This document shows positions 33,156 to 51,721 of a stretch of DNA of 64,000 bases, one piece after another (the stretch's first letter is position 1; the number at the start of each line of letters is the position of its first letter). The translations under genes and the position numbers were made by a program. This DNA comes from an uncultured delta proteobacterium (lineage in GTDB: Bacteria; Myxococcota; UBA727; VGSZ01): assembly GCA_963775425.1 (NCBI GenBank), contig CAVZJB010000008.1, positions 266,749 to 330,748 of the forward strand, read 5' to 3'. Below the pieces are notes generated by a model. The model did not search any database. It was not told where the DNA came from and saw nothing but the letters and a program-made list of their open reading frames with translations.

Positions 33156-35949
33156 ATGCCGATATCGCTGCGCTCTTCCGCGGCTGTCTGCCTCGCGCTC
33201 GCCGCCGCCGCTTCGCCTTCGTGCAACTGCGGAGACGACGCTCTCGTCAAGCTGGTGGTGCTCGGCGCCGTACAGCCGAGCCTCGACTTCGGCCAGCGTT
33301 TCGTCGGGTCGTCGACGCAGGCGACGGTGACCGTCGGCAGCCAGGGGACGGCGCCGCTCGACCTCAGCGACGCATCGGTGGCGGGCGGCGGCTTCACCAT
33401 CGTCGGCGCGGCGCCGATCGGGGACATTGCGCCCGGCGACAGCGCAGAGGTCGTCGTCGAGCTCGAATCCGACCGTGGCGGGCCCCGCTTCCGGCTCGCT
33501 CACCATCACCACCAACGCGAGCAACGGACCCGTCTTCACCGTCGCTCTTACCGGCGAGGGGCTCGCGCCGCTCGAGTGCCCGCCCGACGAGGCGTGCAAG
33601 CAGCTCACGTTCGATCCGGACACGGGCACCTGCGTGATCGAGATCCGCACGGGCGCGTGCGACGACGGATCCGTGTGCACGACCCAAGATCACTGCGACC
33701 AGGGCTCATGCGTCGGCGAGGCCGTCCAGTGCCCCACGGAGGGGGAGTGCGGGCGCGGGGTGTGCGACGCGCAGCTCGGCTGCCTGGCCATCCCCGACGC
33801 CGACCTCTGCGACGACGGGCAGCCCTGCACCGTCGAGAGCTGCGACGCCGACCTCGGGTGCACGCACCTCACGCTCGCTGACGGCGCGCCCTGCGGCCAC
33901 TTCGACACGTGCCACGTCGGCACGTGCAGCGCGGGCTCGTGCATCGTCAGCACCCTGCCAGACGGCGCGGCTTGCGACGACGGGCTCCTGTGCACCGCCG
34001 ACGACCAGTGCCGTTCCGGCGCCTGCGGCGGCGTCCGCGGCGAGACCACGCCGGTGCCCGCGGCGGTGTCGAGCGCGTTCGGCTTCGGCGAGGCGTTCAT
34101 GATGCCCGACATCGAAGGTGCACCCGACGACGTCGCGTTCCTCTTCACGGAGTCGCACCTGGTGCGCGCGCAGGGCGGAGCGCTCGCTCTCGTCGACACG
34201 GCGCCCGGCCCGCCGAGCGCCGCCGACAGCGTGCAGGTCGTCGCCACGTCGTTCGGCGCCGTCGGCGCGGCCTTCGGCTCGCCGCTTCACGTCACCACCT
34301 ACGGCGTCTCCGGCGCGACGTTCACCCCGCTCGGCGGCCTGGACCTGGCATCCGAGCTGAACGGCGTCCTCCTCGCCGCCGCCGGCGACCGCGCGTTCGC
34401 CGCCGGCGCCGACATCACCGCCATCGACATCACGAACCCGGCGGCGCCGCACGTCACCGACGCCGTACCGGAGGCGGGCGTCGGCCTCGCCCTCCTCGCC
34501 GTGGGAGACCGCCTCTTCTACGGGCGCTTGGACGGCTTCACGATCTTCGACACCAGCGCCGGGACGCTCGACGTGCTCTCCGACGACAGCGGCGGCGCGG
34601 CGATCGGCCTGGCGCTCTCGGACGCCGGGGTCCTCGCGCTCCGCTCCGACACGCCAAACCGCGTCGTCGCCGATCGTGTCGACGTGCTCGACCCGGTGAC
34701 CGGCGCCGTGACGTCGACGCTCGACGTCGCCGGCCGCAACGTCGCGGCCGTCGCGAGCCACGGGACCCGCGCGGCGCTGATGGGCGACAACGTCGAGCTC
34801 GTCGCGCTGCCTTCCGGGACCGTGCTCGCCAGCGCGCCGCTCTTTCCCGACTACGTTCACGGACAGCCGGCGATGTCGTCGACGCTGCTGTTGGCGAACA
34901 TCGACGGGTTGCCCGGGGCCCGTGCCTTCGACGTGTCGGGTGATGCCCTCGTGCCGCTTACGGCTCCGGGCTACGGCGCGCTCGGGCGCCTCACGCGGGC
35001 GGCGCCCGGCCTCGTCCTCGCCGCCAGTGCGTTGTCGGCCAGGCTCATCGACGCCACGGATCCTGCCGGCCCGGCGTTCATCGGCGGCGGCAACCTGCCG
35101 TTTCGGGCGTCGCTCTTCCGGCTCGCCGGCGGCGACCTCGTCACGGCCCCGCCCGGCCTCGGCGACGCCTCCGGATCCTTCGGGCCGCTCACCATCGTCG
35201 ACCTCACCGACGTCGACGCGCCGGTGCTCGAGTCGGCGCGTTCGCTCGCTGCTGCGCTCGACGGCCGGTTCCTGTTTGCGGCCGGCGGCATCGTCGTGTC
35301 GATCTCCGCCCGGCAGCCGGGGTTCGCGTGCGACATCGACTGCTCCATCCCGGGCGGCCGCGTGGTCGCCGAGGCGTTCGACGTCTCGACGTCGCCGCCG
35401 TTCCCCTATCCGCGGCTCGGCGGCGCCACGCTCGCGGTGGACGGCGTCATCGCGTTCTCCGATCTCACCACCGCGTTCGATCCCGCCACGCGTCGCATCG
35501 CGGCGGAGCTCGTCGCCGACAGCGACACCATCATCGTCGTCGACGCCGGCGACCCTACGGCGCCGCGCATCTATCCGCCGTTGGCGGAGCCCGGCTCGTT
35601 CGTCGGGTCGAGGCTCGCTCTCCACGGCGATCGTCTCTACATCCTCACCGCGGCCGGTGTGGTCGTGGAGGACATCGGCGCCGACCTGACGGAGCTCGCC
35701 GACGCGAGCTGGGCGAGCCTCGGCCTCCCCACCGACATCGCCTTCCCCCTCGCCGTCGACGACGAGACGCTGGTGGTCGGCTTCGACGGCCACATCGGCT
35801 TCCTCTCGGTGGCGACGCTGCCGCCGCGGTTGATAGGCGATGTCGCCGTCCCGATCGCGCCGGTGCGGGCGACCGCCGACGGCGATCGCCTCGTCGTCAG
35901 CGACCTCGCCCAGATCATGACGCTGACACCCGCCTGTCCACCGCCCTAG
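33156..35949 (+). CDS. Lipoprotein with choice-of-anchor-D-like Ig domain, Cys-rich repeats and LVIVD-like beta-propeller repeats; frameshift near 33470
   Basis: Frame A (33156-): MPISLRSSAAVCLALAAAASPSCNCG...LDFGQRFVGSSTQATVTVGSQGTAPLDLSDASVAGGGFTIVGAAPIGDIAPGDSAEVVVELESDRGGP. Frame B then continues the same domain (..SGSLTITTNASNGPVFTVALTGEG). Repeated Cx(n)GxC modules and LVIVD-like repeats follow to 35949. The indel lies in ggcgggccccgcttccgg. Confidence 0.6.
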
Positions 35950-36067
35950 CGCGCGCGGCCGGGCACCCGCTCGAGCATGCCGGTCCCATCACGCCGGGCC
36001 CCCGCACGGACGCGGATCCGTGTAATGCCGAGGCGCGCGCGGCGTTCAACACCGTGAAGGGGGCGCG

Positions 36068-36637
36068 ATGAGCACACAGGCGTGGCGGGCGGACGCAGAG
36101 GAGCTCACGCGGGTCGCCGCCGGCGACGACGGCGCCTTTCGCCGGCTCTATGACGCCCATCACGGGCGCGTGGTCCGGCTCGCGTATGGCGTGTTGCAGG
36201 ACCGCGAGCAGGCGCGCGACATCGCCCACGACGTCATGATCAAGCTCTTGCGGGCGGCGGCGGCGTGGGAGCCCCACGCCGCCGTGTCCACGTGGCTGCG
36301 TCGGGTGACGCTCAACGAGTGCCTCAGTTGGCGGCGGCGCCTGTTGCGCCGCCGCCGCCACGAGGACCCGGTGGATCCCGCCCCCGCCATCGACGCCACC
36401 GAGAGCGACGCGCCGTCTCCGCACGAGGTCGCCCAGGGCGTGGAGCGCAGGCGCTCCTTGCGGGCGGCGCTCGCCGGGCTGGCGCCGCGGGACCGCGCCA
36501 TCGTGGTCCTTCACGTCGACGAGGGCATGGCCCCGCGGGAGATCGCAGCCACGCTGAGCATGAACGACAACGCCGCGCGGGTCGCCCTGCACCGCGCGCT
36601 CACGCGGCTGCGCGCCGCGCTCGGAGCGACGCCATGA
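36068..36637 (+). CDS. ECF-subfamily RNA polymerase sigma-70 factor
   Basis: Sigma region 2 (FRRLYDAHHGRVVRLAYGVLQDREQARDIAHDVMIKLL) and region 4 (LAPRDRAIVVLHVDEGMAPREIAATLSMNDNAARVALHRALTRLR). Confidence 0.85.
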   Translation: MSTQAWRADAEELTRVAAGDDGAFRRLYDAHHGRVVRLAYGVLQDREQARDIAHDVMIKLLRAAAAWEPHAAVSTWLRRVTLNECLSWRRRLLRRRRHEDPVDPAPAIDATESDAPSPHEVAQGVERRRSLRAALAGLAPRDRAIVVLHVDEGMAPREIAATLSMNDNAARVALHRALTRLRAALGATP

Positions 36638-37587: not shown

Positions 37588-37687
37588 CGAGCTGGGGCGC
37601 CGATCTCGTACGGCCGTGCGCGCTGTCACGAACGACACGCGCACCGTTCGCTGGTGCTGGGCGGCGCTCGGGTCCATAACGCCGCTC

Positions 37688-40600
37688 ATGCGCCAACGGC
37701 AAGCTGCGCCTCTCCAACGAAAGACGGCTTCCCCGGTAAGGCTCAGCCGCTTGCAGCGGGGCATCGAGGTGGGCTTCGCGATGGCGCTCGTGCTCCTCGC
37801 CGTCATCGGCTTCACCGCCTATCGCAGCACGATGGCGGTCGTGTCGGGTGCCGCTGATCAGCAGCGGGCCGACGAGGTCGTCGCCACGCTCGATGCGGTG
37901 GGGCGCGAGCTCGTCGACGCGGAGACGGGAGAGCGCGGCTACGTCGTCACCGGCGATCCGGCGTTCCTGCAGCCGCTGCGGGCCGCCACCGCGAACTTGC
38001 CGGGAGAGATGGCTCACCTGGAGGCGGAGCTGAAGGGCGACCCGGCGCAAGAGCGCCGCGCGCAGCGGCTGCGCCCGGTGATGGAGCGCAAGCTGCGCTG
38101 GGTCGAGCATGTCGTGGACGTGCGCGACACCAAGGGCGTCGCGGTCGCGCGGGATGTCGTCGCCTCCGGACACGGCAAGGCGACCATGGACGCCATGCGC
38201 CACATGCTCGATGAGATGCAGCACGAAGAGGTGCAGGCGGCGGGCCTGGCGCATCCGGGTGGAACCGAGGTCCGCGCCGCGCTCGCCTCCATCGCCGGCG
38301 GCAGCGGTCTCGCCTTCGTCGTCGGCGCGCTCGCGCTCCTGCTGCTGCGCGCGGACAGCCGGCGGCGGCTCCGCGACGAGCAAGTGCTCAGGCTGCAGAG
38401 CCAGATCGTCGACCAGGTCCACGATGCGGTGATCGCCACCGACGTCGACGGCGTCGTGCAAAGCTGGAACCAGGGTGCGGAGCGCATCACGGGTTACACG
38501 CGCGCGGAGGCGCTCGAGCGACCCGTCTCCTTCCTCTACCCTGAGGAGGAGCGGGACATGCACGAGCGCGATGTCATCGCGCCCCTGCAGGCAAAGGGCG
38601 CTCACGAGGTCTCGGTCCGGCTGCGCAAGAAGTCGGGCGAAGACTTCTACGGCCATGTGTCCTTGTCGCTGCTGCGCGATGACGACGGTGAGCCCATCGG
38701 CATGATCGGCTACACCATGGACGTCACCGACCAGCGGCGCGCCGAGGACGCGCTGCGCGTCCGCGCGGAGCAGCAGTCCCGCGTCGCCGCGCTGGGCGAG
38801 CGCGCGCTCGCGTGCGCGAGCCTGCCCGAGCTCCTGCGCGACGCGGTCTCCGTCGTCACCGAGGCGCTCGACGTCGAGCTGTGCGAGCTCCTCGAGCTCC
38901 TCCCCGGGCAGGGCGGGCTGCTGCTGCGCGAGGGCGCCGGCTGGCAGGAGGGCCTGGTCGGCCGAACCACGGTTGACGCAGGCGCCGCGAGTCAGGCCGG
39001 ATACACGCTCGAGCGCGGTGGCCCCGTCGTCGTCGCGGATCTGGGTCGGGAGGCGCGCTTCACCGCGCCGCTGCTGACGGCTCACCAAGCGGTCAGCGGC
39101 ATCACCGTCGTCATTCAGGGACACAAGCGGGCCTTCGGCGTGCTCGGTGCGCACGCGCGCGGGCGCCGTGAGTTCACGGCAGACGACGTGGCGCTCGCGC
39201 AGAGCGTGGCGAACATCGTCGGCCAGTTCGCGGAGCGCACTCACGTCCTCGAGCGCCTGCGCGAGCAGGCCGCGCTGCTCGAGCACGCCCACGACGCCAT
39301 TGTCGTCGTCGACATGCTTGATCGGGTCACGTTCTGGAATCGCGCGGCGGAACGCATCACCGGCTGGCGGGCAGAAGAGACCATCGGCCGGGACCTGCAG
39401 ACGTGCCTGTACTCCGCCGACGTCGAACGCTATCGCCGTGCGCGGCGCAAGATGCTGGAGGACGGAGAGTGGGCAGGTGAGCTGCGGGCCCGCAGCCGCG
39501 ATCACAAGCCCATCGTGAGCCAGGTCAGTTGGACGCTGTTTCACGACGAAGCCGGCCGGCCCCAGGGCGTGCTTGCCATCATGACGGACGTCACCGAGCA
39601 GCGCCTGTTGGAGGCGCAGTTCTATCGAGCACAGCGGCTGGAGAGCATCGGAACGCTGGCGAGCGGCATGGCGCACGATCTCAACAACATCCTGCAGCCC
39701 GTGATGCTGTCGGGACAGTTGCTGCAGAAGCGCCGCCCCGGGCAGGACACGCGGCCGCTCGTCGACATGATCGTGCGCAACTGCCGCCGTGGGGCGGAGC
39801 TGATCCGCCAGGTGTTGTCGTTCGCGCGCGGCGCCGAGTCGGAGCGCGCGCCGCTCGACCCGGCCACCGTCATCGACGAGGTCGCCCCCATGCTGCGGCG
39901 GACCCTGCCCCCTTCGATCACGCTCGAGGTGGATCGCCCTCAGGCGGTTCGTGCCGTCGCCGGCAACGCCACCCAGCTCCATCAGGTCTTGATGAATCTC
40001 TGCGTCAACGCTCGCGACGCCATGCACGGCGCCGGCGTGCTGCACATCGACGTGGCGGACGCGGAGCTGAGCGAAGCGGACGCGCGCAGGCAGCTTGACG
40101 CGCGGGCGGGGTGGTACGTGCGCATCCGCGTCGTGGACACGGGCGTGGGCATCGCGCCCGACCTCATCGACAAGATCTTCGATCCGTTCGTCACCACCAA
40201 GGGCCAGGGAGAGGGGACGGGGCTCGGGTTGAGCACCGTGCGTGGGATCGTGGTCGGGCACGGCGGCTTCATCGCCGTCGACAGCGAGCCGGGGCGCGGC
40301 ACGACCTTCTCCGTCTACCTCCCGGCTCTCGACGAGGCGAGCCAGCCGGCGCCTGCCGGCGCGAGCGCCGCCGCGCTCCCCGGACACGGCGAGCGCATCC
40401 TCGTCATCGATGACGAAGCGGAGGTGCGCGAGGCCACGCGCGACGTGCTCGAGTCGGCGGGGTACCGGGTCGTGACGGCGGAAGACGGGGTGAACGGCGT
40501 GCAGGTGTTCCGCAGCGATGCCGTCGGCTTCCAGGCCGTCGTCACCGACATGGTCATGCCCCGGATGAGCGGCGCGGTCACCATCGAGCGCTTGCGCGAG

Positions 40601-40750
40601 GTGGATCCGCACGTTCGCGTGATCGTCACGAGCGGCGTGCTCGAGCGGAGCGAGGCCGCCGCCTACGGCGCCGTCGCATTCGTGCCCAAGCCCGTCGAGC
40701 TGGACACGCTCCTCGAGGTCGTCGCCGACACGCTCGCGCGACCGGCGTGA
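37688..40750 (+). CDS. Hybrid sensor histidine kinase/response regulator with CHASE3, PAS, GAF, PAS, HisKA/HATPase and receiver domains
   Basis: TM then CHASE3-like periplasmic segment then TM. PAS (VIATDVDGVVQSWNQGAERITGY), GAF, a second PAS, the H-box AHDLNNILQP, N/G boxes (LMNLCVNARDAM, DTGVGI, GLGLSTV) and a receiver (ILVIDDEAEVRE...DMVMP). The start could be 37616. The minus ORF 37445..40612 is a shadow. Confidence 0.85.
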   Translation: MRQRQAAPLQRKTASPVRLSRLQRGIEVGFAMALVLLAVIGFTAYRSTMAVVSGAADQQRADEVVATLDAVGRELVDAETGERGYVVTGDPAFLQPLRAATANLPGEMAHLEAELKGDPAQERRAQRLRPVMERKLRWVEHVVDVRDTKGVAVARDVVASGHGKATMDAMRHMLDEMQHEEVQAAGLAHPGGTEVRAALASIAGGSGLAFVVGALALLLLRADSRRRLRDEQVLRLQSQIVDQVHDAVIATDVDGVVQSWNQGAERITGYTRAEALERPVSFLYPEEERDMHERDVIAPLQAKGAHEVSVRLRKKSGEDFYGHVSLSLLRDDDGEPIGMIGYTMDVTDQRRAEDALRVRAEQQSRVAALGERALACASLPELLRDAVSVVTEALDVELCELLELLPGQGGLLLREGAGWQEGLVGRTTVDAGAASQAGYTLERGGPVVVADLGREARFTAPLLTAHQAVSGITVVIQGHKRAFGVLGAHARGRREFTADDVALAQSVANIVGQFAERTHVLERLREQAALLEHAHDAIVVVDMLDRVTFWNRAAERITGWRAEETIGRDLQTCLYSADVERYRRARRKMLEDGEWAGELRARSRDHKPIVSQVSWTLFHDEAGRPQGVLAIMTDVTEQRLLEAQFYRAQRLESIGTLASGMAHDLNNILQPVMLSGQLLQKRRPGQDTRPLVDMIVRNCRRGAELIRQVLSFARGAESERAPLDPATVIDEVAPMLRRTLPPSITLEVDRPQAVRAVAGNATQLHQVLMNLCVNARDAMHGAGVLHIDVADAELSEADARRQLDARAGWYVRIRVVDTGVGIAPDLIDKIFDPFVTTKGQGEGTGLGLSTVRGIVVGHGGFIAVDSEPGRGTTFSVYLPALDEASQPAPAGASAAALPGHGERILVIDDEAEVREATRDVLESAGYRVVTAEDGVNGVQVFRSDAVGFQAVVTDMVMPRMSGAVTIERLREVDPHVRVIVTSGVLERSEAAAYGAVAFVPKPVELDTLLEVVADTLARPA

Positions 40751-40859
40751 TCCCGCGCCGGGCGCCGCCGGCCCCTGCGCGCAGAAGAGCCGTTCCCCGC
40801 GGCGCCCGGGCGGCCTCGCGCAGGCGACGTCCGCCGATCGACGGACGCGCGACGGTCAA

Positions 40860-40877
40860 AGAAACAGCATTGTTTCT
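40860..40877 (+). promoter_or_regulatory. AT-rich perfect palindrome agaaacaGCATtgtttct, 23 bp upstream of the astacin start; candidate operator
   Basis: A 7-4-7 inverted repeat in an otherwise ~70% GC context. An aaggagg RBS follows at 40887-40893. Confidence 0.4.
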
Positions 40878-40899
40878 ATGTCGCAACCAAGGAGGCCCC

Positions 40900-41793
40900 A
40901 TGATCGCGCGCTCGTCCATCTTCATCGCCCTGCTCCTGACCGCCGCCTGTGGCGCGCCGCCGCCGCTCGACGACGACGGCGCTCCGACGCTCGGCGCGCC
41001 GGGAGAGGGTGTCTGGCGCACCGCCGCGGTGCGGATCGACGATCGGATCGCCACCCTCTCCGTGGAGGACTTCGACGGGACGTACGTCCTCGACGGCGAC
41101 ATCGTGCTCGACCCCGAGGACGTCACCGTGCTCGACGACCACGACGCGCTCGACGCCGGCGGTGTGCAGGCGACGCCGCCGCCCACCGAGGAGCAGGGCC
41201 TGGCGGCCGTGAAGCGCGGCCGGCTGTGGCCCGGCGGCGTCGTCTACTACCGCTTCAGCGCTTCGCTCTCGTCGACGATGCGCCACCGCGTCAAGCGCGC
41301 CATGGCGGCGTGGGAGGACAGGGCGAGCATCGTCTTCGAGAAGGCCGGCCCCGGCCGCGACGACTACGTCTTGATCAAGCCGTTTCAGCACCCCTACTGC
41401 CGCGCGAGCATCGGCCACGGCTCAGGCGTCCGGTACATGTGGCTGAGCCACGTGTGCAGCGTCGGGCTCATCAAGCACGAGCTCGGCCACTCGCTCGGCC
41501 TCTACCACGAGCAGTCGCGGCAGGACCGCGACAAGCACGTGCGCATCCTGTGGAACAACGTCGAGAGGTGGGCCCGCGGCAACTTCGATCGGTACCGGGA
41601 GACCGCCGGCCGCGACGTCGGGCCGTACGACCTCGACTCCATCATGCAGTACAGCTCGTACGCGTTTTCGAAGAACGGCGCGCCCACCATCGTGCGCGTG
41701 AGCGACGGGCGCCCGTTCGGCGGCTACCGCACCGCGATCTCCGATCTGGACGCGCGCTACGTGAAGCGCATCTACGCCCACGCCGCCCAGTGA
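40900..41793 (+). CDS. Astacin-family (M12A) zinc metallopeptidase lipoprotein
   Basis: Lipobox LLLTAACG. HELGHSLGLYHEQSRQDRD is the astacin HExxHxxGxxHE signature. Met-turn SIMQY. The upstream part of track ORF 40747 is R-rich. Confidence 0.85.
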   Translation: MIARSSIFIALLLTAACGAPPPLDDDGAPTLGAPGEGVWRTAAVRIDDRIATLSVEDFDGTYVLDGDIVLDPEDVTVLDDHDALDAGGVQATPPPTEEQGLAAVKRGRLWPGGVVYYRFSASLSSTMRHRVKRAMAAWEDRASIVFEKAGPGRDDYVLIKPFQHPYCRASIGHGSGVRYMWLSHVCSVGLIKHELGHSLGLYHEQSRQDRDKHVRILWNNVERWARGNFDRYRETAGRDVGPYDLDSIMQYSSYAFSKNGAPTIVRVSDGRPFGGYRTAISDLDARYVKRIYAHAAQ

Positions 41794-41829
41794 CGCACCT
41801 CGGGGCGCGCCGGGGCACCCCGGCGCCCG

Positions 41830-44800
41830 CTATGGGATCAGCAACCGGACGGCGTTCGAGCCGTCGCCGGTCCAATAGATGTCGCCGTTGCCGTCGAGGG
41901 CGACGCCCTCCGGCGCGTTCAACAGGCCCGTGCCCGGCGCCGTGAGCGAGCTGAAGCCCGCGGTGTTGAGCGTGCCGACCAGCGTGCGCACCGTCCCGCT
42001 CGTCCCGAGCCCCGCCGCGCCCTGGCCGGCGACGACCGCGGCCACGCCGGGCAGCGCGCGCAGCCGGTGGTTCGACACCTCGGTGAAGAACAGCGTGTCG
42101 GCGACGGCGTCGTACGCGAGCCCGCCGATGTTGTTCACCGTCATGCCGTTGCCGTTGACGCCGTCGCCGGTGGAGCCGTTGTTGGCGCCCGCGATGTAGG
42201 TGAGCGTGCCGTCGGTCTCCAGGCGCAGGAGCGCCGAGGTGTTGAGCGCGTTGTTCGGCACCGGGCAGGCGCCGCCGTTCGAGATATTCGCCGAGAAGTA
42301 CATGCGGTCCTGCGCGTCCCACGCGAGCCCCGTGTTGGAGATGGAGCTGACCACCAGGCCCGACGCCGCCGTGCAGTTTTGACTGCCGAGCACCGCGCTG
42401 GTGGTGTTGAACGGCGACACGGGATCGATGCGGCGGATGTCGTTGAAGCCGTTGTCGACGACGTAGAGGAAGCCGTCCGGGCCGATGCTGAGCTCGCGGA
42501 TGTCGTTCAAGCTCACGCCCGAGCCCGCGCCGCCGTCGCCGTGTCCGGGGGTGTCCGCGGCGCCGCCGGCGATGGTGGTGATGATGCCGTCGCTGATGTT
42601 GACCCGGCGGACGCGGTCGCGGTCGACGGAGCCGCCGGCGTCCGCGATGTAGACGTTGCCGGCGGCGTCGAGCGCGATGCCCCGCGGCGACTCCAGTTGC
42701 GCCTGCGTCGCCAGCACGTTGTCGAGGAAGCCTGAGGTGCCCGTGCCCGCGAACACCGAGAGGTGTCCCTCCGGGCTGATGGACACCACGCGGTGGTTGC
42801 TGCTGTCCGACACGAACAGCGTGCCGTCCGCCGCGAGCGCCACGCCCGAGACGCTCAAGCTCAGGCGCGCTTGCGTGGCCGCGATCTCGCCAAAGCCGCT
42901 GAGCGGCGGCACCGCCCCCGCGGTGCCCTGGCTGTTGGCGATGGCGACGGTGCTGCCCGAGGGCGGGCGCTGCGCCGTCAACGTAAACAGCGGGGGCTGT
43001 CCGGTGCCGTCGATGATGTCGACGGGATCAAGCCACGTGCGCGCGAGCGCCTGGAACCGGTGCGGCGTGGTCACGCTGCGGCCGAGGCGCACCGTGCTGC
43101 TGGCCTCGCCGGCGAGCGTGGTGGCCAGGACGCCTTGTGTGACGCTGTCGCCGAGGTCGAGCGCCGTGAAGAACACGGGCAGCCCCACCACCGGCGTGGA
43201 GCCGCCGTCGATGACGCGCACGCGCAGCGGCAGCGCGGCGAGCTGACCCATGGTGGCGATCTGCGCATCTCCGTCGACGATGGCGATGGTGGCCGTGGCG
43301 GGCGTCTGCTGACCGATGCCGCGGATCATGCGCACGCGCTCGTTGCCGCCGTCGACGACGTAGAGGTTGTCGTCGGCGTCGAACGCGAGGCCGGTGGGGG
43401 CGTTCACGCGGGTCGCGGTGCTGTTGACGTTGTCGGCGGTGAAGCCGGCGACGCCGTCGCCCGCGACGGTGGTCATCACGCCGAGGACGTCCACCTTGCG
43501 GATGCGGTGCCCCGTGCCTTCGGCGAAGTACAGGTTGCCGGCGGCGTCCACGGCGATGCCGCCGACGCGGTGCACGCGGATGCCCAGGGCCGCGCCGGAG
43601 GCCGCCTCGGTGTTGCCGCCCGCGAGCGCGGTCTGCGTGACCCCGTCGCTCTCGAGCCGGAACACGTAGTCCGCGTTGGGGTCGGGCACCGGGCAGCCGC
43701 CGGCGTTGCCGATGCTGCCGCTGTAATAGAGGCGGCCCTCCTTGTCGAAGGCGAGCGACGCCTGCGGAAACGACGTGGCCGCCACGCCCGTCACCGACGA
43801 GCAGGCCTGGCCGACCACCACGCTGTCGATGACGCCGGGCAAAGCCGGCGTGGTGACCTGTACGCGGCGGATGCGCTGGTGCGCTTCGTCGACGATGAAC
43901 ACGTTGCCGGTGATCCCCGGGACGTCGCTGCCGTCGGCCGCGGTGGGGCCGACCGCGACGCTGGATGGTGCGTCGAGGTTCGCGCCGGTGGCGACCACGC
44001 CGTCGGCGGGCTGCGGGTTGTTGAGCGCGCTCCCCGCGAAGACAGTGAGGTTGCCGTCGCTCGTCAGCACACGCACGACGTCGTTGTTGGTGTCCGCGAT
44101 GTAGAGGTTCTTGTCCGCGTCGAGCGCGAGGCCGTGCGGGCCGTTGAGCGCGACGGAGAGCGCGGGCCCGTTGCCGCCGTTGCCGGCCGCGCCGGTGCCG
44201 GCGACGGCGAGCACGGCCCCGTTCGGGTCCACGCGCAGCACGCGGTTGTTGGAGGCGTCGCTGTAGAACACCGTGCCGTCGTCGGGGTCGACGGCGATGC
44301 CGTCGAACGAGGTGGTGAGGTTGGCGAGGGAGCGGGCCGCCGACGAGCTCAGCGTGCTGCCGGGGACGCCGGTCTGGTTCACGATGCTCGCGATGATGCC
44401 GGTGGCGATGTCCGTGGCCGTCTCGGTGAGCACGATGGGGGTGCCGAGCGGCAGGCCGTCGAGCCCGGTGGACGTGAGGGTGAACGTCGCCGCGCCCGGC
44501 GTCCGCGGCAGGAAGGCCACGAAGGAAAAGACGCCGTTGCCGTCGGTGAACCCCGACGACGGCTCCGCCGCCGCCCCGGCCGGCGTCGTCACCTGTACGA
44601 AGACGCCGGAGATGGGCGTGCCGTCGGTGTCCTTCACCGTGACGCCGAGCGGCGAGGCGAGCGCCTGGTTGATGGTCGCCGACTGGCCGCCGCCGAAGGG
44701 CGTGGCGACCACCACGGGCGGCGTGGTCTCCGCCACGGCGCGCACGACGCGCACGTCGTCGAGGCCGGCGTCGGTGATGATGAGGTCGCCCGCCGGCGAG

Positions 44801-47800
44801 AACGCAAGGAAGGACGGCACCGCGAACAGCGCGCCCGACGCGGGGCCGCCGTCGCCGGTGGTGGTCGACGTCGCCACCGTGCCCGCCGTGCCCGCCAACG
44901 TCGAGATCACGCCGGTGGCCGACACCTTGCGCACGCGCTCCGACGTGCCGCGCTCGGCGACGTACGCGTTGCCCGCCGGGTCCATGGCCAGGCCGGAGGG
45001 CGTGTCGAGGCGCGCGCCGCGCGCGGCGCCCGTGGTGACGATGGTGCTCCCGCCGGCGAGCGCCGTAAGCGTGCCGTCCGCCTCCAGGCGAAACAGGACG
45101 TCCGCGGAGCTCGGCAGCGCGCAGCCGCCGCCGTTGAGGATCTGTCCGAGGAACACGAGCCGATCCTGCGGATCGAGCGTGAGCTCGGTGTCGGCGAGCC
45201 CGCCCGCGCGGAGGTTGCCGGTGGTGCACAGCGCGACGGTGATCGCCGTGCTGATGAAGCCGCCGGTGTTGATCTTCTTGATGGCGTCCGGGGACCCGTT
45301 GTCGAGGACGAACGCGTCACCGGTCTGCGCGAACACCAGCGACGTGGGGCCCGAGAGCTGCGCGGTGGTGGCGAGGACGTTTTCGTTTGTCGACGTGCCG
45401 CCGCCGGCGAACGTGGTGACGAGGCCGGTCTGCGCATCGAGCTCGCGCACGCGGTTGTTGTTGGTGTCCGCGATGTAGAGGTTCTCGTTCGCGTCGAGCG
45501 CCAGCCCGTGGGGGCGGCTGAAGCGCGCTTGTGGGCCGGCGACGTTGTCGACGAACGCCGCCTGTCCCGCGTCGCTGCCGGCGGCGAGGAAGAGCTCTCC
45601 GTCGGGCGCGATGCGCACGACGCGGTTGTTCGCGGAGTCGGCGACGAAGATGGACCCGTCCGACGGGCGAACCACGACGCCGGAGGCCCCCTCCAGGCTC
45701 AGGGACGCCTTGGACGCGGCGCTCGGCGCGGCGTTGCCCTGGCCGTCGAGGAGCTGCGTGCGGCCCTGCTGCGCGGGGGCGTTCGCCAGCGTGCCGGCGA
45801 AGCCCGTGGGGAGATCCGTCGCCGTGGCCGCGATGCTCAAGGGCGCGCCGGCGAGCAGCGCTCCGTCGGGCCCGGTGCCGGTGACGGTGAACGTCTGCGC
45901 GCCGAGCGCGCGCGACACCGTGCCGAGCGAAGACGCGTTGCCGTTGGCGTCGGTGAGCACCACCGCCGGTGACACGACGCCGCCAGGCGGCGCCGTGAGC
46001 ACGATCTGCAGACCGACGAGCGGCGCGCCCGCCGTGTCCTGCGCGTGGACCACGAACGCCTGCGCGAGGTCCGCCGAGAAGCGCGCCGACTGACCGCCGC
46101 CCGCGCCGAGCGAGAGCGAAAACGGCGCCTCGCACTGCCCGCCGCAGTCCTTGGGACACGTGGTGCACGCCTCGCCGGAGTCGCACGTGCCGTTGCCGCA
46201 CGTGGCGACGCAGTCGGCCGGGCACGACGACGAGTCCTCGAGCGGGTCGCAGCGGTTGTTGCCGCAGGTGGAGCACAGGTCGCTCGACAGACGGCACGTC
46301 AACGGGTCGCACGAGATCTGCCCGGCGTTGAAGCCGAGGTCGCCGCAGGTGGCGCCGGCGAAGTTGTTGCCGTCGCACTCCTCGTCGCCTTCGATGATGC
46401 CGTTGCCGCAGATGGAGCAACTGTTGGCGTTCACCTGGCACTGCGAGTTGCACGCGAGGGTGCCGACGGAGCCGGCGACGAAGTCGGCGCAGGTGGCGCC
46501 GCCGAAGTTGGTGCCGTCGCACTCCTCGAAGTCGGCGGTGTCGATGATGCCGTCGCCGCAGTTGCTGCACTGCGTGGTGCGCGCGTGGCAGTTGGAGTCG
46601 CACGTGAGCGTGCCGCCGAAGAACCCGAAGCTGGTGCACGACAGGCCCGAGGCGAAGACGCCGCCGACGTCGCAGTCCTCGCCGGCGTCGAGGACGCCGT
46701 TGCCGCACTGGCCCGCGACCGTGAAGGGCGCGGCGCCGCCGGCGCCGTCGGGCACGGACACCGTGAGCTCCTGCGCCTGCCCGCCCGTGTCCGTGAACGC
46801 GTAGACGAGCGCGACGCGCCAGACGCCCTGCGGGAGGCGGCCGCCGCTGTCGACGCGCACCAGGCTGTCGGTGGCGATGCTCGGAGCGATCTCGACGGTC
46901 AGCTCGTCGTCGTCGCGCACGAAGCGGGCGGTGGTGATGCGCGCGTGGTTGAGGCTCGAGCCCTGCAAGAGCACGGTGAAATTGGCTCCGTCGACGGGCG
47001 GCGACAGCGCCTGCTGCGACAGGAGCGTGGGCGCGATGGCGGCGAACGTCGGCGACAGCGCCGTGCCCGTGGAGAAGTCCGCCGTGATGAAGAAGTCGCC
47101 GCGCTCGGGGAGCGCGTCGTCGACGCGCACGTTCAGCGCCGTGGCCGACGCCGACACCAGCGTCGCGGCGTACTCCGCGCCCGCGCCGTCGTTCAGGTGC
47201 ACGTGCCCGCCGTCGATGGCCACGAGGTTCTGGCCGGCCACCGTGACGACGTCACCGGGCACGAGCGCGCCCACCACGTCCGGCGACACGCTGGTGAACA
47301 CAGGCGCGAGCGCGTCCTCGTAGACGAGCGCCGAGGCGTCGGTCTGCCCGTCGGGGTTGGCCACCCGCAGGATGGCCGCGCCCGGCGCGCGCAGCGGCGG
47401 CACGAAGGTGAAGGACGTGCCCGTGAGGTTGGTGATGGGCAGCGGGTCCGTGTCGAGGAACGCGAGCATGCCGGTCTGAAAGCCCGAGCCCGTCACCGTG
47501 ACGGTGACGTTGAGCGCGTCGACGCGCACGCTGGCCGGGTTGAGCGCCAGGACGCGCGGCGGCGCCGCGGCGGGCGCGAACACGTCGACGGCGAGGGTGC
47601 CGCTCTGCTGCCCGTCGGTGTTGCGCACCGTGATGTCGGCGCTGCCCTCCGCGAGGCCGCCGGGCGCGGTGGCGATGATGCGCGAGTCGTTCACGAACGT
47701 CACGGCCGGCGCCGCCAGGGACGTCGCCCCCTGCGCGAACACGGCGGTGACGCCGGGGCGGAAGCCGGAGCCGTCGAGGAACACGCGGGTGCCGCCCAGC

Positions 47801-50061
47801 GTGGACACTGCCGTCGGCGTGGCGACCACGAGCACCGGCGGCGGGGTGGCGTAGGAGAAGCCCCCGGCGAGGATGGCGGTCTGGCCGTCGGGATTGGTGA
47901 CGACGAGGTCGACCGCGCCGGCGGTGACCTTGGGCGGGGTGCGGCACGTGATGCTCGTGTCGGAGGCGACGGTGACGTCGGAGGCGACGGAGCCGCCGAA
48001 GCGGACGAGCGCGCCGGAGACGAAGCCGGTGCCGCTGAGGGTGACGAGGTCGCCGCCGTCGGTGGAGCCGGTGGCGGGGGCCACGCTCGTGATGGCCGGC
48101 GCCGCGCCGGCCGGCTCGACGTAGACGAACGGGAAGCCCGCGCTCGCGATGGTGGAGCCGTCGGCGGTGACGTTCTCGACGACGAGGGTGGTGAAGCCGG
48201 CGCTGCCCGTGGGCGCGGTGGCCGTGATGAGGTTGGAGGAGACGACGACGACGCCGGTGGCCAGTTGCCCGCCGACGGTCACGCGCGCACCGCCGTTTTG
48301 CGCGGAGAAGAAAGCGCCGCTGATGTTGAGCGCGGTGCCCCCGAGGGTGCTCCCGGTGGGGGGATCGACCTGGTCGATCTCCGGCGCCGGCGCGTCATAG
48401 GTGAACACCGACGGCAGCGTGGCCGCCTCGCCGTTTTGGTTGATGGCGACCACCGTGAGCGGCGCGCCGAGATCGTCGGTGGACCCGGGCGGCGTGACGG
48501 TGTCGATGCGGGCGCCGTCGTCGGAGGTGACGGTCGCACCGGGGTCGGCCACGTGCGAGCCGATGAGCACCGCGGCGGTGTCGAAGTCGATGCCGTGCAG
48601 CGTGAGATCGTTGCCGCCGCGGAAGTCGCCGTGGGTGCGCGACAGCGGGTCGACGTCGTCGAACTCCGGCCCGGAGTTGAGCTGCGCGAGCAGCGCGAAC
48701 GGCAGGCCGGCGTCGACGGAGCCGTCGCCCGGCTCGCGGCCATCGACGCGCGAGAGCACGATGATGGCGCGGCGCGTGTCGGTGCTCGACGTGTTGCGGA
48801 ACTGCGCCGCCTCGGGCGAGGCGCCAGGGTGGGCGCTGACGACGCTCTCGCCGTCCGCGGCGGAGAGGCCGCCGGCGCCGTCGAGCACGAAGAGGCCGAG
48901 CTGGACGTCGGCGGTGAGGCCGTCGAGGACCACGCTCAGGCGGTTTCGCGGCGGGACGGCGACGTTGAACACGAGCCCGGGCGCGACGCCGCCCACGTCG
49001 TCGCCGGCGGTGGCGAACGGCAGCGCGGGGACGTCGACGGTGTCGTTGGGGTCGTCCGAGAGCTGCACGCTGCCGGGCGCGATGGGTTGTCCGCCAAAGA
49101 GCGACGCCGGCGGGAACGGGATGATGGTGCCGCTGAAGCCGACGGCCGCGCCGTCGACGGTGCCGGGGTCGTAGCCGGCGACCGCGGGCTGCGGGTCACC
49201 GTCGGAGCTCGCGATGACGGCGAGCTCGCTGACCGACGTCACGTGCGAGTCCGGCTGCTCGGTGGCGAGCGCCACGCTGCCGCGCACCAGGAACTCGTTG
49301 GTGGGCGCGAAGGTGACGGCGAGCAGCACCTCCTGGAACGGCTGCATGGTGAACGGCTCGAGGCTGCGCGGGGCGCCGCCCTCGGGGGTGCCGGTGGGGT
49401 CGATGCGCGTGATGGAGACCCCCTGGCCGCCGACGACGACGGGCGAGACCGTCTGCGTGAGGCCGGAGACGTTCTCGACGACGATCACCTGCCGCGTGAA
49501 CTGGCCGGGGCGGATGCCCGACGAAAACTGCAGCGTGTCGGGCAAGACCGCGAGCACGCGCTTGGGCGGCGCGGGGTCGAAGCCGGCGACGAGGTCGTCG
49601 ATGTTGCTCGCGCCGTTGCCGTTTTGGTCGAAGACGGCGGCGCCGTCGACGGCCCAATCGGCCTCCTTGAGATCGAAGAACACCGAGCTGCGCGGCTCGA
49701 GCGTGACGTTCCTCTTGGCGAGGCCGACGAGCACCTCGTCGCTGTCGCCCGACAGGCGCCCGAACACGCGCAGGGTGACGTCCGCCTTCTGTGCCTGCTG
49801 CACCGCGAGGACGAAGGCGCCGCTGAGGTGCTGGTGGCTCTCGTCGAAGGTCAGCTCGGTGGGTGCGAGCAGGCCCGGGATCTCCAGCGTGGCGCGCAGC
49901 AGGTCGCGCTGCTTCGGCGCGAGGTTGGCGACGCGCAGCTTCTTCGGCATGGTGATGGCGGCGTTGGCCTCGCCGCAGGAGCACGACGACAGCGCCGCGG
50001 CGGCGCCCAGGGTGGCCACGACGACGAGCCGCGCAGCGACGTTGCGATGGGGGCGGTTCAC
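41830..50061 (-). CDS. Giant (2743 aa) secreted lipoprotein with IPT/TIG, Cys-rich repeat, Ig-like and multiple NHL-repeat beta-propeller regions
   Basis: The GTG at 50059-50061 overlaps the upstream TGA (GTGA). Lipobox AAALSSCSC. Repeated IPT-like units (GGTxLxISGxGF..A.V.FGG...VxVxSxxxIxCxTP). CGNGxxDxGEDCD Cys repeats. Many NHL-like repeats (LxxPxGLALDxxxNLYIADxxNxRVR). The plus-strand ORFs (42763..45972, 46045..51279) are shadows. Confidence 0.85.
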   Translation of the reverse strand: MNRPHRNVAARLVVVATLGAAAALSSCSCGEANAAITMPKKLRVANLAPKQRDLLRATLEIPGLLAPTELTFDESHQHLSGAFVLAVQQAQKADVTLRVFGRLSGDSDEVLVGLAKRNVTLEPRSSVFFDLKEADWAVDGAAVFDQNGNGASNIDDLVAGFDPAPPKRVLAVLPDTLQFSSGIRPGQFTRQVIVVENVSGLTQTVSPVVVGGQGVSITRIDPTGTPEGGAPRSLEPFTMQPFQEVLLAVTFAPTNEFLVRGSVALATEQPDSHVTSVSELAVIASSDGDPQPAVAGYDPGTVDGAAVGFSGTIIPFPPASLFGGQPIAPGSVQLSDDPNDTVDVPALPFATAGDDVGGVAPGLVFNVAVPPRNRLSVVLDGLTADVQLGLFVLDGAGGLSAADGESVVSAHPGASPEAAQFRNTSSTDTRRAIIVLSRVDGREPGDGSVDAGLPFALLAQLNSGPEFDDVDPLSRTHGDFRGGNDLTLHGIDFDTAAVLIGSHVADPGATVTSDDGARIDTVTPPGSTDDLGAPLTVVAINQNGEAATLPSVFTYDAPAPEIDQVDPPTGSTLGGTALNISGAFFSAQNGGARVTVGGQLATGVVVVSSNLITATAPTGSAGFTTLVVENVTADGSTIASAGFPFVYVEPAGAAPAITSVAPATGSTDGGDLVTLSGTGFVSGALVRFGGSVASDVTVASDTSITCRTPPKVTAGAVDLVVTNPDGQTAILAGGFSYATPPPVLVVATPTAVSTLGGTRVFLDGSGFRPGVTAVFAQGATSLAAPAVTFVNDSRIIATAPGGLAEGSADITVRNTDGQQSGTLAVDVFAPAAAPPRVLALNPASVRVDALNVTVTVTGSGFQTGMLAFLDTDPLPITNLTGTSFTFVPPLRAPGAAILRVANPDGQTDASALVYEDALAPVFTSVSPDVVGALVPGDVVTVAGQNLVAIDGGHVHLNDGAGAEYAATLVSASATALNVRVDDALPERGDFFITADFSTGTALSPTFAAIAPTLLSQQALSPPVDGANFTVLLQGSSLNHARITTARFVRDDDELTVEIAPSIATDSLVRVDSGGRLPQGVWRVALVYAFTDTGGQAQELTVSVPDGAGGAAPFTVAGQCGNGVLDAGEDCDVGGVFASGLSCTSFGFFGGTLTCDSNCHARTTQCSNCGDGIIDTADFEECDGTNFGGATCADFVAGSVGTLACNSQCQVNANSCSICGNGIIEGDEECDGNNFAGATCGDLGFNAGQISCDPLTCRLSSDLCSTCGNNRCDPLEDSSSCPADCVATCGNGTCDSGEACTTCPKDCGGQCEAPFSLSLGAGGGQSARFSADLAQAFVVHAQDTAGAPLVGLQIVLTAPPGGVVSPAVVLTDANGNASSLGTVSRALGAQTFTVTGTGPDGALLAGAPLSIAATATDLPTGFAGTLANAPAQQGRTQLLDGQGNAAPSAASKASLSLEGASGVVVRPSDGSIFVADSANNRVVRIAPDGELFLAAGSDAGQAAFVDNVAGPQARFSRPHGLALDANENLYIADTNNNRVRELDAQTGLVTTFAGGGTSTNENVLATTAQLSGPTSLVFAQTGDAFVLDNGSPDAIKKINTGGFISTAITVALCTTGNLRAGGLADTELTLDPQDRLVFLGQILNGGGCALPSSADVLFRLEADGTLTALAGGSTIVTTGAARGARLDTPSGLAMDPAGNAYVAERGTSERVRKVSATGVISTLAGTAGTVATSTTTGDGGPASGALFAVPSFLAFSPAGDLIITDAGLDDVRVVRAVAETTPPVVVATPFGGGQSATINQALASPLGVTVKDTDGTPISGVFVQVTTPAGAAAEPSSGFTDGNGVFSFVAFLPRTPGAATFTLTSTGLDGLPLGTPIVLTETATDIATGIIASIVNQTGVPGSTLSSSAARSLANLTTSFDGIAVDPDDGTVFYSDASNNRVLRVDPNGAVLAVAGTGAAGNGGNGPALSVALNGPHGLALDADKNLYIADTNNDVVRVLTSDGNLTVFAGSALNNPQPADGVVATGANLDAPSSVAVGPTAADGSDVPGITGNVFIVDEAHQRIRRVQVTTPALPGVIDSVVVGQACSSVTGVAATSFPQASLAFDKEGRLYYSGSIGNAGGCPVPDPNADYVFRLESDGVTQTALAGGNTEAASGAALGIRVHRVGGIAVDAAGNLYFAEGTGHRIRKVDVLGVMTTVAGDGVAGFTADNVNSTATRVNAPTGLAFDADDNLYVVDGGNERVRMIRGIGQQTPATATIAIVDGDAQIATMGQLAALPLRVRVIDGGSTPVVGLPVFFTALDLGDSVTQGVLATTLAGEASSTVRLGRSVTTPHRFQALARTWLDPVDIIDGTGQPPLFTLTAQRPPSGSTVAIANSQGTAGAVPPLSGFGEIAATQARLSLSVSGVALAADGTLFVSDSSNHRVVSISPEGHLSVFAGTGTSGFLDNVLATQAQLESPRGIALDAAGNVYIADAGGSVDRDRVRRVNISDGIITTIAGGAADTPGHGDGGAGSGVSLNDIRELSIGPDGFLYVVDNGFNDIRRIDPVSPFNTTSAVLGSQNCTAASGLVVSSISNTGLAWDAQDRMYFSANISNGGACPVPNNALNTSALLRLETDGTLTYIAGANNGSTGDGVNGNGMTVNNIGGLAYDAVADTLFFTEVSNHRLRALPGVAAVVAGQGAAGLGTSGTVRTLVGTLNTAGFSSLTAPGTGLLNAPEGVALDGNGDIYWTGDGSNAVRLLIP

Positions 50062-51017
50062 GGCGCACCTCCGACGATGATCTTGGCGGGCGTGGAGAGA
50101 TACTCGTACGTGCCGACGGCGGCGACCGTGCCGCCGACGACGACGACGCCGGCGAGCGCGCTGCCCCACACGTACCAGCGGGCGTACCAGGGCTGCAGGC
50201 TGGCCTCGTCGACGAGGTCCACCTGCACCACCTGGGTCTCGTCGGCGTTCACCGCCACGTCCTTGCCGAAGGGGACGTACCCCGGCTTGCGCACCTCGAT
50301 GCGGTGCGGGCCGATGGCGAGGTCGTGCACCGGCTTCACCGGCGCCTGGCCGAGCTCCTTGTCGTCGATGACGACGCTGGCGCCGGCGGGCGAGAGGATC
50401 TCCACGCTGCCCGCGAGCGCCGCGGCCTTCTTGCCGAGCACGAGCCGGTCCACCGCGGAGCGCGCGAGGTCGACCATGTCGTCGACGGCGCTCTTCCACG
50501 TGTACGCCACGCGCTGGAGGATCACCGGTGTGTCGGTGGTGTCGACGAGCGTGAGCGAGAACACCGCGGCGCCGCCTTCGGCCATCTCAACGGAGCCGAA
50601 CACCACGCGCTTGGCCTGCGCGAGCTTGCCGATGTCCGCGGTGCACGCGGCCTCGTCGCAGCCGAGCAGCCGCTGGTCGGCCTGGTGCGCGAGCAGTGTC
50701 TTGAGCTCGTTGCGCGAGACGGCGCGCCACCCCGGCCGCGCCCCGATCTCCGTCGTCACCAGCGTGGTCAACGCCCTGGCGATGCCCTCGGTGCCCTTGC
50801 CCGCGCGCAGGTCGAGCACGGCGACGGTGAGCACGTCGTCGGGCAGTTGCACGGCGGGCGCGGGCGCGGCCTGCTGCGGCTGCTGCGGCTGCGGCGGCGC
50901 GGCGGGCGTCGACGGGGCGTCGGCCGGCGTCGCTGCCGCGGGCGCGGCGGCGGGAGGCGTGTCGGGAGCGGGCGGCGTGGCGACCGCGAGGGCCGCGGCG
51001 ATGGCGAGGGCGTGCAT
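50058..51017 (-). CDS. PEGA-domain secreted/membrane protein
   Basis: Signal peptide, Pro/Ala/Gln-rich linker, a PEGA-like domain (LSPAGASVVIDDKELGQAPVKPVHDLAIGPHRIEVRKPGYVPFGKDV) and a C-terminal TM helix. Confidence 0.75.
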   Translation of the reverse strand: MHALAIAAALAVATPPAPDTPPAAAPAAATPADAPSTPAAPPQPQQPQQAAPAPAVQLPDDVLTVAVLDLRAGKGTEGIARALTTLVTTEIGARPGWRAVSRNELKTLLAHQADQRLLGCDEAACTADIGKLAQAKRVVFGSVEMAEGGAAVFSLTLVDTTDTPVILQRVAYTWKSAVDDMVDLARSAVDRLVLGKKAAALAGSVEILSPAGASVVIDDKELGQAPVKPVHDLAIGPHRIEVRKPGYVPFGKDVAVNADETQVVQVDLVDEASLQPWYARWYVWGSALAGVVVVGGTVAAVGTYEYLSTPAKIIVGGAP

Positions 51018-51154: not shown

Positions 51155-51721
51155 GTGCGCTCCCCGCAGACGCTGAGCGAAGCCGACCGGCGGATTGTCG
51201 CCGCGTGGGCGGCAGACTGCGCGGAGCGGGTGCTCGGCTGGTTCGAGGCGGAAGCTCCAGAGGACTCCCGACCGCGTGATGCCATCGCGCGGACGCGGGC
51301 GTTCGCGCGTGGCGAGCTCGGCGTCGCCGAGGAGATCCGCCGGCGCTTCGTCGGTGGCGGCGCCGCTCGCGACGTGAGCGCTTGCGCGGCGGCGGCGGCT
51401 CGCGCGGCGGGGCAAGCCTCGGCCGTCGCGCATATGGGCGCGCACGCGCTCGGCGCCGCCGCGCAAGCCGCGAAGGCGGCAGGGCTCGGCGCGCCCGATC
51501 GGCCGACGGCCATCAGCGAAGAGATTCGCTGGCAGCTCGATCACATGTCCGGGGCGGCCGCAGCCGCGCTGCGAACGCTGCCGCCGGTCGGTGAGAATTC
51601 GTCCGGCCCCCTCGGGCCAGGGCTCCTCGCCTCCGGTCTCCTCGGCGCGATCATCCGTGAGATTCAGGCGAGCTTGGCGGACCCAGGCCACGTGCTCCCC
51701 GCCGCCTGGCGAACGCTGTGA
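51155..51721 (+). CDS. Hypothetical alpha-helical protein
   Basis: 188 aa of balanced composition. No recognisable motif. Confidence 0.5.
   Translation: MRSPQTLSEADRRIVAAWAADCAERVLGWFEAEAPEDSRPRDAIARTRAFARGELGVAEEIRRRFVGGGAARDVSACAAAAARAAGQASAVAHMGAHALGAAAQAAKAAGLGAPDRPTAISEEIRWQLDHMSGAAAAALRTLPPVGENSSGPLGPGLLASGLLGAIIREIQASLADPGHVLPAAWRTL

Follow-up and report, generated by a model that had tools for sequence, protein, structure and literature searches.

A giant multidomain lipoprotein and a PEGA-domain protein encoded as a conserved gene pair in uncultured Myxococcota-like bacteria

The analyzed window is a 64,000-nt stretch of DNA (≈ 73% G+C) from an uncultured delta proteobacterium placed in the Myxococcota, and its positions 41,830 to 51,017 are occupied by two genes on the reverse strand. 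The upstream gene (50058..51017, −) was called as an open reading frame (ORF) with an ATG start and encodes a 319-residue protein, hereafter the partner. It was characterized by its Pfam PEGA match, an alignment of homologs, an AlphaFold2 (AF2) model, and a Foldseek search. The downstream gene (41830..50061, −) encodes a lipoprotein of 2743 residues, hereafter the giant, followed by a TAG stop codon; ten full-length orthologs were found for it. Both flanking genes lie on the opposite strand, a divergent Imm5-like gene upstream and a convergent astacin gene downstream. The two genes form an operon of their own and constitute a dedicated pair that is conserved in related genomes.

The gene junction (50058..50072, −), analyzed in the sequence and by comparison with the junctions of orthologs, is composed of GGAGG, a 6-nt spacer, and the string GTGA. 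The GTG of the giant (50061-50059) overlaps the TGA of the partner (50060-50058) within the GTGA at 50061-50058. The GGAGG (50068-50072) is located 6 nt 5′ of this GTG, inside the upstream gene, whose frame reads GTC GGA GGT GCG CCG TGA. A stop/start overlap preceded by a ribosome-binding site within the upstream gene is the layout of a translationally coupled pair, and coupling is predicted here. With the GTG at 50061 as the start codon, the giant has 2743 residues, and the N-termini of the ten full-length orthologs (M-N...) align to this start. An earlier in-frame GTG at 50499 was rejected, as it would create a 440-nt overlap with the partner gene and add Arg-rich, out-of-frame sequence. The start is thus supported by the ortholog N-termini, by the proper lipoprotein signal that follows from it, and by the implausibility of the upstream alternative. 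A preliminary description of this DNA had reported the 2743-residue product and the overlap of its GTG with the TGA of the PEGA gene; both are borne out by the ORF table and the sequence, and the start assignment holds without a sizeable intergenic gap. As for other signals, the promoter scan found no promoter, Rfam gave no match, and terminator-like sites were no commoner than in shuffled sequence. The 36-nt gap between the astacin and giant genes (41794-41829) can form a GC-rich hairpin of −24.8 kcal/mol, which is no more stable than those of shuffled sequences (z = −0.84), and therefore we do not claim a terminator there.

The layout of the giant was established by reading the sequence together with piecewise Pfam scans, a self-built hidden Markov model (HMM) of the TIG domain, and blade motifs. 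The signal peptide (49981..50061, −), recognized in the sequence and in the ortholog alignment, has the sequence MNRPHRNVAARLVVVATLGAAAALSS-C27, with a positively charged n-region, a hydrophobic h-region, and the lipobox LSSC ending in Cys27. This cysteine is invariant across the 10 orthologs, and position −1 is occupied by A, G, or S, in agreement with the lipobox noted in the preliminary description. The giant therefore carries the signals of a lipoprotein processed by signal peptidase II, with acylation and cleavage predicted from the sequence.

The segment following the lipobox (residues 28-465; 48667..49980, −) was delineated from weak Pfam matches, AF2 modeling, Foldseek, and a profile search. 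It is built of three β-sandwiches: N1 (residues 28-165), an ASH/PapD-like domain (166-295), and a PPC/jelly-roll-like domain (296-465). The Pfam matches were weak for ASH (E = 0.004) and PPC (E = 0.1), N1 matched no family, and the N-terminal module is absent from the curated family libraries. The AF2 model of residues 28-472, calculated with the ten orthologs, is all-β. Foldseek aligned it with the ASH domains of CEP192 and Hydin and with C-terminal sandwiches of the secreted proteases VesC and Vpr and of a sialidase, and so the model places the relatives of the N-terminal module among structural or binding modules and not among enzymes.

The N-terminal module is followed by an Ig-like (immunoglobulin-like) stalk (46714..48666, −), formed by five TIG domains (TIG1-5, residues 466-917) and two units at residues 918-1116. 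The TIG family (PF01833) scored 116-134 bits in Pfam (cut-off 20.9), and four stretches passed on their own; the fifth domain was backed by the self-built HMM, and the last two units are Ig-sized but divergent. The stalk also matched the NCBIfam CoaZ repeat with 72.9 bits; no NCBIfam family was above its cut-off for the giant or the partner. The more than eight IPT/TIG-like domains counted earlier are thus reduced to five clear and two divergent ones. The subsequent Cys-rich block (residues 1117-1311; 46129..46713, −), defined by sequence reading and the ortholog alignment, contains, between residues 1119 and 1310, three ≈ 50-residue repeats of the type CGNGxx(D/E)xGExCD and two ≈ 20-residue repeats of the type CGN(G/N)xC, which agrees with the tandem CGNGxxDxGEDCD-type repeats described before. 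All 29 Cys residues of the block are invariant among the orthologs. DUF4215 (PF13948), a Cys-rich repeat of the Myxococcus type, matched these repeats at 22.4 bits, below the cut-off of 27, and NCBIfam gave no match to them.

The C-terminal part of the giant comprises three modules, each combining a Big_1-like Ig domain with a six-bladed NHL propeller: A (residues 1312-1778; 44728..46128, −), B (1779-2250; 43312..44727, −), and C (2251-2743; 41833..43311, −). All three were assigned from Pfam, blade motifs, and comparison of the modules, with sequence reading in addition for module C. NHL (PF01436, 116.9 bits) and TEN_NHL (PF25021, 119.2 bits) scored above the Pfam gathering scores, and Big_1 (PF02369) reached 24.3-26.7 bits against a cut-off of 34.9. 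The 18 blade motifs, read from the sequence, fall into three groups of six, and a regular expression detected 12 of them. The preliminary description was right about the presence of NHL repeats; its count of about 20 has to be lowered to these 18 blades. Each propeller has a single Cys pair, located in the fourth blade (Cys1612/Cys1647 in A, Cys2087/Cys2123 in B, and Cys2563/Cys2599 in C) and invariant among the orthologs. The closest PDB sequence matches of the propellers were the bacterial teneurin-like proteins 9ifo and 9pt5 (E = 6e-36), with the NHL domains of SOQ1, NHLRC2, PknD, and TRIM71 also among their nearest solved relatives. The C-terminus of the giant falls inside the last NHL blade, leaving no additional C-terminal domain, and the Pfam, NCBIfam, and PADLOC scans found no catalytic, toxin, YD/RHS, or defence match. 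Overall, the domains listed at first reading were right in kind, with the Ig-like Big_1 matches remaining below the cut-off.

The ten full-length orthologs, found with the full-length query, have 2721-2759 residues and share 47-58% identity with the giant. The conservation is even, at ≈ 50% in every domain. Pairwise identity among modules A, B, and C is 32-36%, as opposed to 41-67% between each module and its counterpart in other species, meaning that the triplication is ancient and that each copy has been maintained. Tandem Repeats Finder reported only two trivial short arrays and no DNA-level repeat of the domains; hence, the domain repeats are old and do not stem from a recent duplication of DNA.

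The anatomy of the partner was derived from an alignment of 21 homologs and the AF2 model (pLDDT, the predicted local distance difference test, of 81). A short, cleavable signal peptide (residues 1-13), with a clear A-x-A cleavage site in several homologs, is followed by a Pro/Ala-rich linker (≈ 14-60) that varies widely in length and sequence across homologs. At DNA level, the linker includes a 9-nt tandem array (50866-50898, 3.6 copies) encoding PQPQQPQQ. The α/β domain (residues 61-176; 50490..50837, −) was modeled with pLDDT of 86-96 over most of its length and is connected by a long helix (178-200) to the PEGA sandwich (201-268; 50214..50417, −), modeled with pLDDT of 95-97. The PEGA match (PF08308, residues 209-269) scored 46.2 bits against a cut-off of 20.8, with E = 4e-12. 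The conserved Trp/Tyr-rich motif QPWYARWYVWG then leads into a C-terminal transmembrane helix (277-307; 50097..50189, −), assigned from the alignment and the AF2 helix, and the chain ends with a 12-residue tail.

In Foldseek searches of the PDB, the α/β domain matched TolB (E = 1e-7), PelC (3e-5), and LpoB (1e-4) with probability 1.0, and also FlgT and GNA1162. The template modeling scores (TM-scores), normalised to the single-domain targets PelC, LpoB, and GNA1162, ranged from 0.45 to 0.63. No Pfam or NCBIfam match to the TolB_N, LpoB, or PelC families was found for this domain. The matched regions of TolB, FlgT, PelC, GNA1162, and LpoB are all periplasmic domains that bind other envelope proteins. 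Considering its signal peptide and C-terminal helix, we expect the partner to have a type I membrane topology and to expose the two folded domains to the periplasm. Cys120 and Cys125 are invariant in the alignment of homologs. Together with the 29 Cys residues of the repeat block and the propeller pairs of the giant, they fit an oxidising, extracytoplasmic location of both proteins.

Partner homologs with 52-77% identity occur in metagenomes and metagenome-assembled genomes (MAGs) labelled Myxococcota, Myxococcales, or ‘Deltaproteobacteria’, and the scan of the genome collection returned four true relatives. Matches from Arenimonas/Lysobacterales were set aside, as they covered only 70 residues of the TolB-N-like domain. 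In the related loci L001/L002 and L003/L004, on the GCA_041442895 contig, and in L008 and L009, the gene directly after that of the partner encodes a giant (2741-2759 residues) with the Pfam domains of the one in the window. The PEGA gene lies at most ≈ 25 nt 5′ of the giant in every related locus with available upstream sequence, and so the adjacency proposed from the window is also found in related genomes. The gaps measure 5 nt in L008 and L009, 9 nt in L001, 11 nt in L003 (with GGGAGG), ≈ 20 nt in L007, and 25 nt in L022; in L008 and L009, an in-frame GTG within GTGA permits a 4-nt overlap like that of the window. The genes on either side of the pair differ from locus to locus and include QueC, thioredoxin, PlsY, ATP synthase, and fatty-acid desaturase, among others. 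In L001, a 1373-residue NHL/TEN_NHL/DUF4215 protein (19464-21185, −), another propeller-rich envelope protein, is encoded convergently with the giant gene.

The pairing extends to more distant relatives. In L007, L010, and L011, partners with 44-50% identity precede TIG lipoproteins of 2000-2070 residues that have the same N-terminal module. L007 (3626-15083) contains one partner gene of 485 codons and then two consecutive giants, P0116 and P0119, both with the N-terminal module (2068 and 2770 residues, the latter extending beyond the end of the locus). In L022, a PEGA gene lies just before that of the giant P0045 (3048 residues, 32% identity). The public call of P0045 starts too late (L022, 5854-6001): the ATG at 5882, 25 nt past the PEGA stop, gives MKKNNGLLGWLGVVGVLLWGGAC and restores the lipobox. 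The contig of L023 begins in a partner-type transmembrane tail, 10 nt 5′ of the giant P0049. Moreover, a second, paralogous pair was observed upstream of the orthologous pair on the same MAG contig in L008 (1-7530), where a PEGA-type transmembrane tail ending at nt 392 is followed by a lipoprotein ORF of ≈ 2370 residues with the N-terminal module.

The N-terminal module defines a small family, as an exhaustive profile search with it retrieved only 98 of 1.84 billion representative proteins. Complete proteins that match over the full length of the module have 1200-3600 residues and, without exception, carry it at residues ≈ 25-490. The lipobox Cys is present in nearly all complete family members, and the module begins 6-10 residues after it. 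These relatives diverge in their distal domains, which are NHL, Calx-beta, TSP3, or MopE-type motifs, or TIG alone. Consequently, the system can be divided into a constant part, made up of partner, lipid anchor, N-terminal module, and TIG stalk, and a variable distal head.

With a probability of roughly 0.55, we interpret the pair as a dedicated cell-envelope module, in which the partner serves the conserved base of the giant and the variable distal part of the giant binds ligands. The giant is probably adhesin-like or receptor-like, and not an enzyme or a toxin, given its lipid anchor, Ig-like stalk, Cys-rich repeats, and propellers, and the lack of a catalytic or toxin domain. The partner would be bitopic, with its TolB-N/PelC/LpoB-like protein-binding domain and PEGA domain in the periplasm and its C-terminal helix in the inner membrane. 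The giant would display a three-sandwich base a few residues past the lipidated Cys, then a stalk of about seven Ig-like domains, a disulfide-rich spacer, and a distal head of three non-redundant units, each a Big_1 domain with an NHL propeller. Since it is the N-terminal module, and no particular head, with which the partner co-occurs, the partner presumably acts on that module, either docking the base of the giant or assisting in its placement in the envelope. The lineage-variable distal part may bind external ligands, such as proteins or glycans on surfaces, prey, or kin. Moreover, ≈ 20 extended β domains would, judging from typical domain sizes, be longer than the width of the periplasm, which favors surface display of the giant. 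The gene structure, the domains, the lipobox, the conserved pairing, and the joint occurrence of partner and N-terminal module are observed directly; we infer the interaction between the partner and the giant, the surface exposure of the latter, and the binding of ligands.

Several observations weigh against this interpretation. The stop/start overlap, which could have been taken for a family feature, is not kept across orthologs, with gaps of 5 to ≈ 25 nt, although L008 and L009 also allow the GTGA arrangement. The residue following the lipidated Cys differs among orthologs (S, E, A, L, D, or N), so that no conserved sorting signal can be read from it. The AF2 model of the N-terminal module is of moderate confidence only (pLDDT 75, predicted TM-score 0.46). 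Partner homologs at 41% identity (L005/L006) have no adjoining giant, meaning that this type of partner can exist alone. We must also note that all relatives come from uncultured organisms.

A bolder proposal, which we put forward tentatively and hold to be considerably less probable, is that the pair represents an undescribed docking or display system confined to one clade of uncultured Myxococcota-like bacteria, in which a constant ‘socket and plug’, formed by the partner and the N-terminal module, would carry interchangeable heads of the NHL, Calx-beta, TSP3, or MopE type.

It is also conceivable, if unlikely, that the partner serves in biogenesis or export, transiently holding the giant or guiding it to the outer membrane or the surface, rather than as a lasting anchor. 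The proteins that share its fold would suit such a role, with PelC forming a ring that directs a polymer towards a pore in the outer membrane and LpoB being an activator that reaches across the periplasm. The tight operon linkage would match the expression of the two genes, and 2743 residues of β domains would be far too long for ordinary handling. However, the partner has an inner-membrane helix instead of an outer-membrane lipid anchor, and a conserved gene for an outer-membrane pore or for secretion is missing beside the pair in L001/L002, L003/L004, GCA_041442895, or L022. The fold likeness is also at the level of the domain only, with the TM-scores of 0.45-0.63 being normalised to single-domain targets.

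Somewhat less likely still is that the giant stays in the periplasm, attached to the inner leaflet of the outer membrane or to the inner membrane, as a scaffold or an array of lactonase- or lyase-like propellers. The propellers matched Pfam SGL with 50.8 bits and, more weakly, Vgb_lyase, Arylesterase, and strictosidine-synthase-like families. The SGL match covers only profile positions 126-217 of 246, and such cross-matches are expected, since SGL and NHL belong to the same propeller superfamily. The name ‘sugar lactone lactonase YvrE’, which would point to an enzyme and is given in IMG, is therefore misleading. The best matches of the propellers are to binding-type NHL proteins (teneurin, TRIM71, PknD, and NHLRC2), and the Calx-beta, TSP3, and MopE domains in the distal parts of the relatives are binding modules as well. 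This group has no known surface-export signal, which would be consistent with a periplasmic location, but the estimated length of ≈ 20 extended β domains exceeds the width of the periplasm.

The genes downstream of the giant, on the opposite strand, were found as described previously: the astacin gene (40747-41793, +), which is convergent and has its stop 36 nt from that of the giant, the CHASE3/PAS/GAF hybrid kinase gene (37616-40750, +), and the extracytoplasmic function (ECF) sigma gene (36026-36637, +). The accompanying suggestion that the astacin and the sigma/anti-sigma/CHASE3 kinase genes regulate or process the giant derives from their adjacency in the window, and we reject it as improbable. 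The strands converge, which excludes co-transcription, and no homologs of these genes were found in the flanks of the orthologous loci, where the neighbors are unrelated. The astacin, ECF sigma, O-methyltransferase, LOG, and Imm5-like genes have no homolog in any related locus, and the only flank match was a weak receiver-domain similarity of the kinase in the set-aside Arenimonas locus L016. The adjacency of the astacin, sigma, and kinase genes is thus specific to this genome.

The preliminary description had also considered the pair to be a surface adhesin or an S-layer-like apparatus. The dedicated pair and the adhesin-like architecture stand; an S-layer, with the giant forming a lattice anchored by the PEGA protein, is rejected as very improbable. 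The PEGA domain is reported to have been recognized first in cell-surface proteins of archaea and bacteria (PMC2447325). In our pair, however, the PEGA domain resides in the small inner-membrane protein and not in the large one, and no SLH or other S-layer domain was found in the Pfam and NCBIfam scans. A multidomain lipoprotein of 2743 residues is unlike the known lattice-forming subunits. Likewise, the mere 98 family matches, often with two or more paralogous giants per locus (L007 and L008), suit variable adhesins better.

Teneurin-like proteins (TLPs) are common in Myxococcota, are often predicted to be lipoproteins, and are defined by an FN-plug, NHL, and YD-shell superfold (PMC13018210). 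That the giant is a teneurin-like/RHS-type polymorphic toxin, with the Imm5-like gene (51155-51721, +, 137 nt upstream of the PEGA gene) as its immunity gene, is hardly credible despite its best PDB matches being TLPs, because the match is confined to the NHL propeller, no RHS/YD repeat, FN-plug, or C-terminal toxin domain is present, and the orthologous loci lack the Imm5-like gene. The toxin reading is thus refuted at its defining domains, with no YD shell or toxin domain and a chain that ends in an NHL blade. What the giant shares with bacterial TLPs such as 9ifo and 9pt5 is the teneurin-type six-bladed propeller, of which it has three instead of one.

Giant multidomain envelope proteins are common in Myxococcota. 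Our reading of the pair as a dedicated envelope module places the giant closest to Ig-array adhesins and receptors, such as the TIG/Big adhesins of Gram-negative bacteria, with the IPT stalks of plexin and Met as fold relatives; the giant also gave sequence matches to the plexin and Met IPT domains. The similarity consists in an anchor at one end, a TIG/Ig stalk, distal ligand-binding domains, and the lack of a catalytic domain. Unlike those proteins, the giant is anchored by an N-terminal lipid and not by a β-barrel, sortase, or RTX, its head is formed by three NHL propellers, its base of three sandwiches is specific to the family, and a small gene is its obligate partner. PknD, NHLRC2, SOQ1, and TRIM71 use six-bladed NHL repeats for binding, as the giant would, but as single propellers in unrelated architectures.

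The α/β domain of the partner shares the fold and the periplasmic setting of the TolB N-terminal domain, PelC, LpoB, GNA1162, and FlgT, and its long flexible linker resembles that of LpoB. In contrast to these proteins, it has no detectable membership in their sequence families and shares its chain with a PEGA domain and a C-terminal helix for the inner membrane. The partner is not an outer-membrane lipoprotein, and its gene shows no linkage to those of Tol-Pal, Pel, PBP1B, or the flagellum. Other PEGA proteins, including Ser/Thr kinases such as PpkA (PDB 9k1u), likewise have a membrane-adjacent periplasmic PEGA sandwich; the partner differs from PpkA-type proteins in having no kinase or other cytoplasmic output domain, as its cytoplasmic tail is only ≈ 12 residues long. 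Literature searches that combined PEGA with lipoprotein, Myxococcus, or TolB were empty, and the papers naming the PEGA domain contained no functional study of such a pair. Although every domain type in the pair is already known, the three-sandwich module as a family marker and its strict pairing with a TolB-N-like/PEGA/transmembrane partner are new with respect to the curated libraries and the searchable literature.

The remainder of the window offers a few observations of its own. The Imm5-like gene encodes a putative immunity protein of 188 residues (PF21805, E = 6e-31), has a weaker periodicity of G+C at third codon positions than its neighbors, and stands alone between the PEGA and O-methyltransferase genes, with no toxin gene adjoining. 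Just upstream of the ECF sigma gene, an 872-residue protein is encoded (33331-35949, +), with only a weak Dicty_CTDC Cys-repeat match (E = 1.5e-4) and no other assignment. The G+C content dips to 0.65 at 12001-14000, compared to ≈ 0.73 elsewhere, over an MBOAT O-acyltransferase gene (12428-13996, +) that may have been acquired horizontally. Four Ser/Thr kinase genes are located in the window (18140-23317, 29025-31394, 58309-60483, and 61289-63589), one of them encoding 1725 residues with AAA_16 and TPR domains. Such a density of Ser/Thr kinases is typical of Myxococcota-like genomes.

The pair overturns no current view, and its description corrects misleading automatic names such as that of the lactonase mentioned above. 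How very large lipoproteins are placed and held in diderm envelopes is poorly understood beyond a few model species, and a strictly linked partner gene together with a family-specific N-terminal module offers a defined pair with which the question can be tested in Myxococcota-like bacteria. The variability of the heads points to a set of tools for adhering to surfaces, prey, or kin. If the ‘socket and plug’ arrangement proves true, it would represent a modular way to present very long surface proteins.

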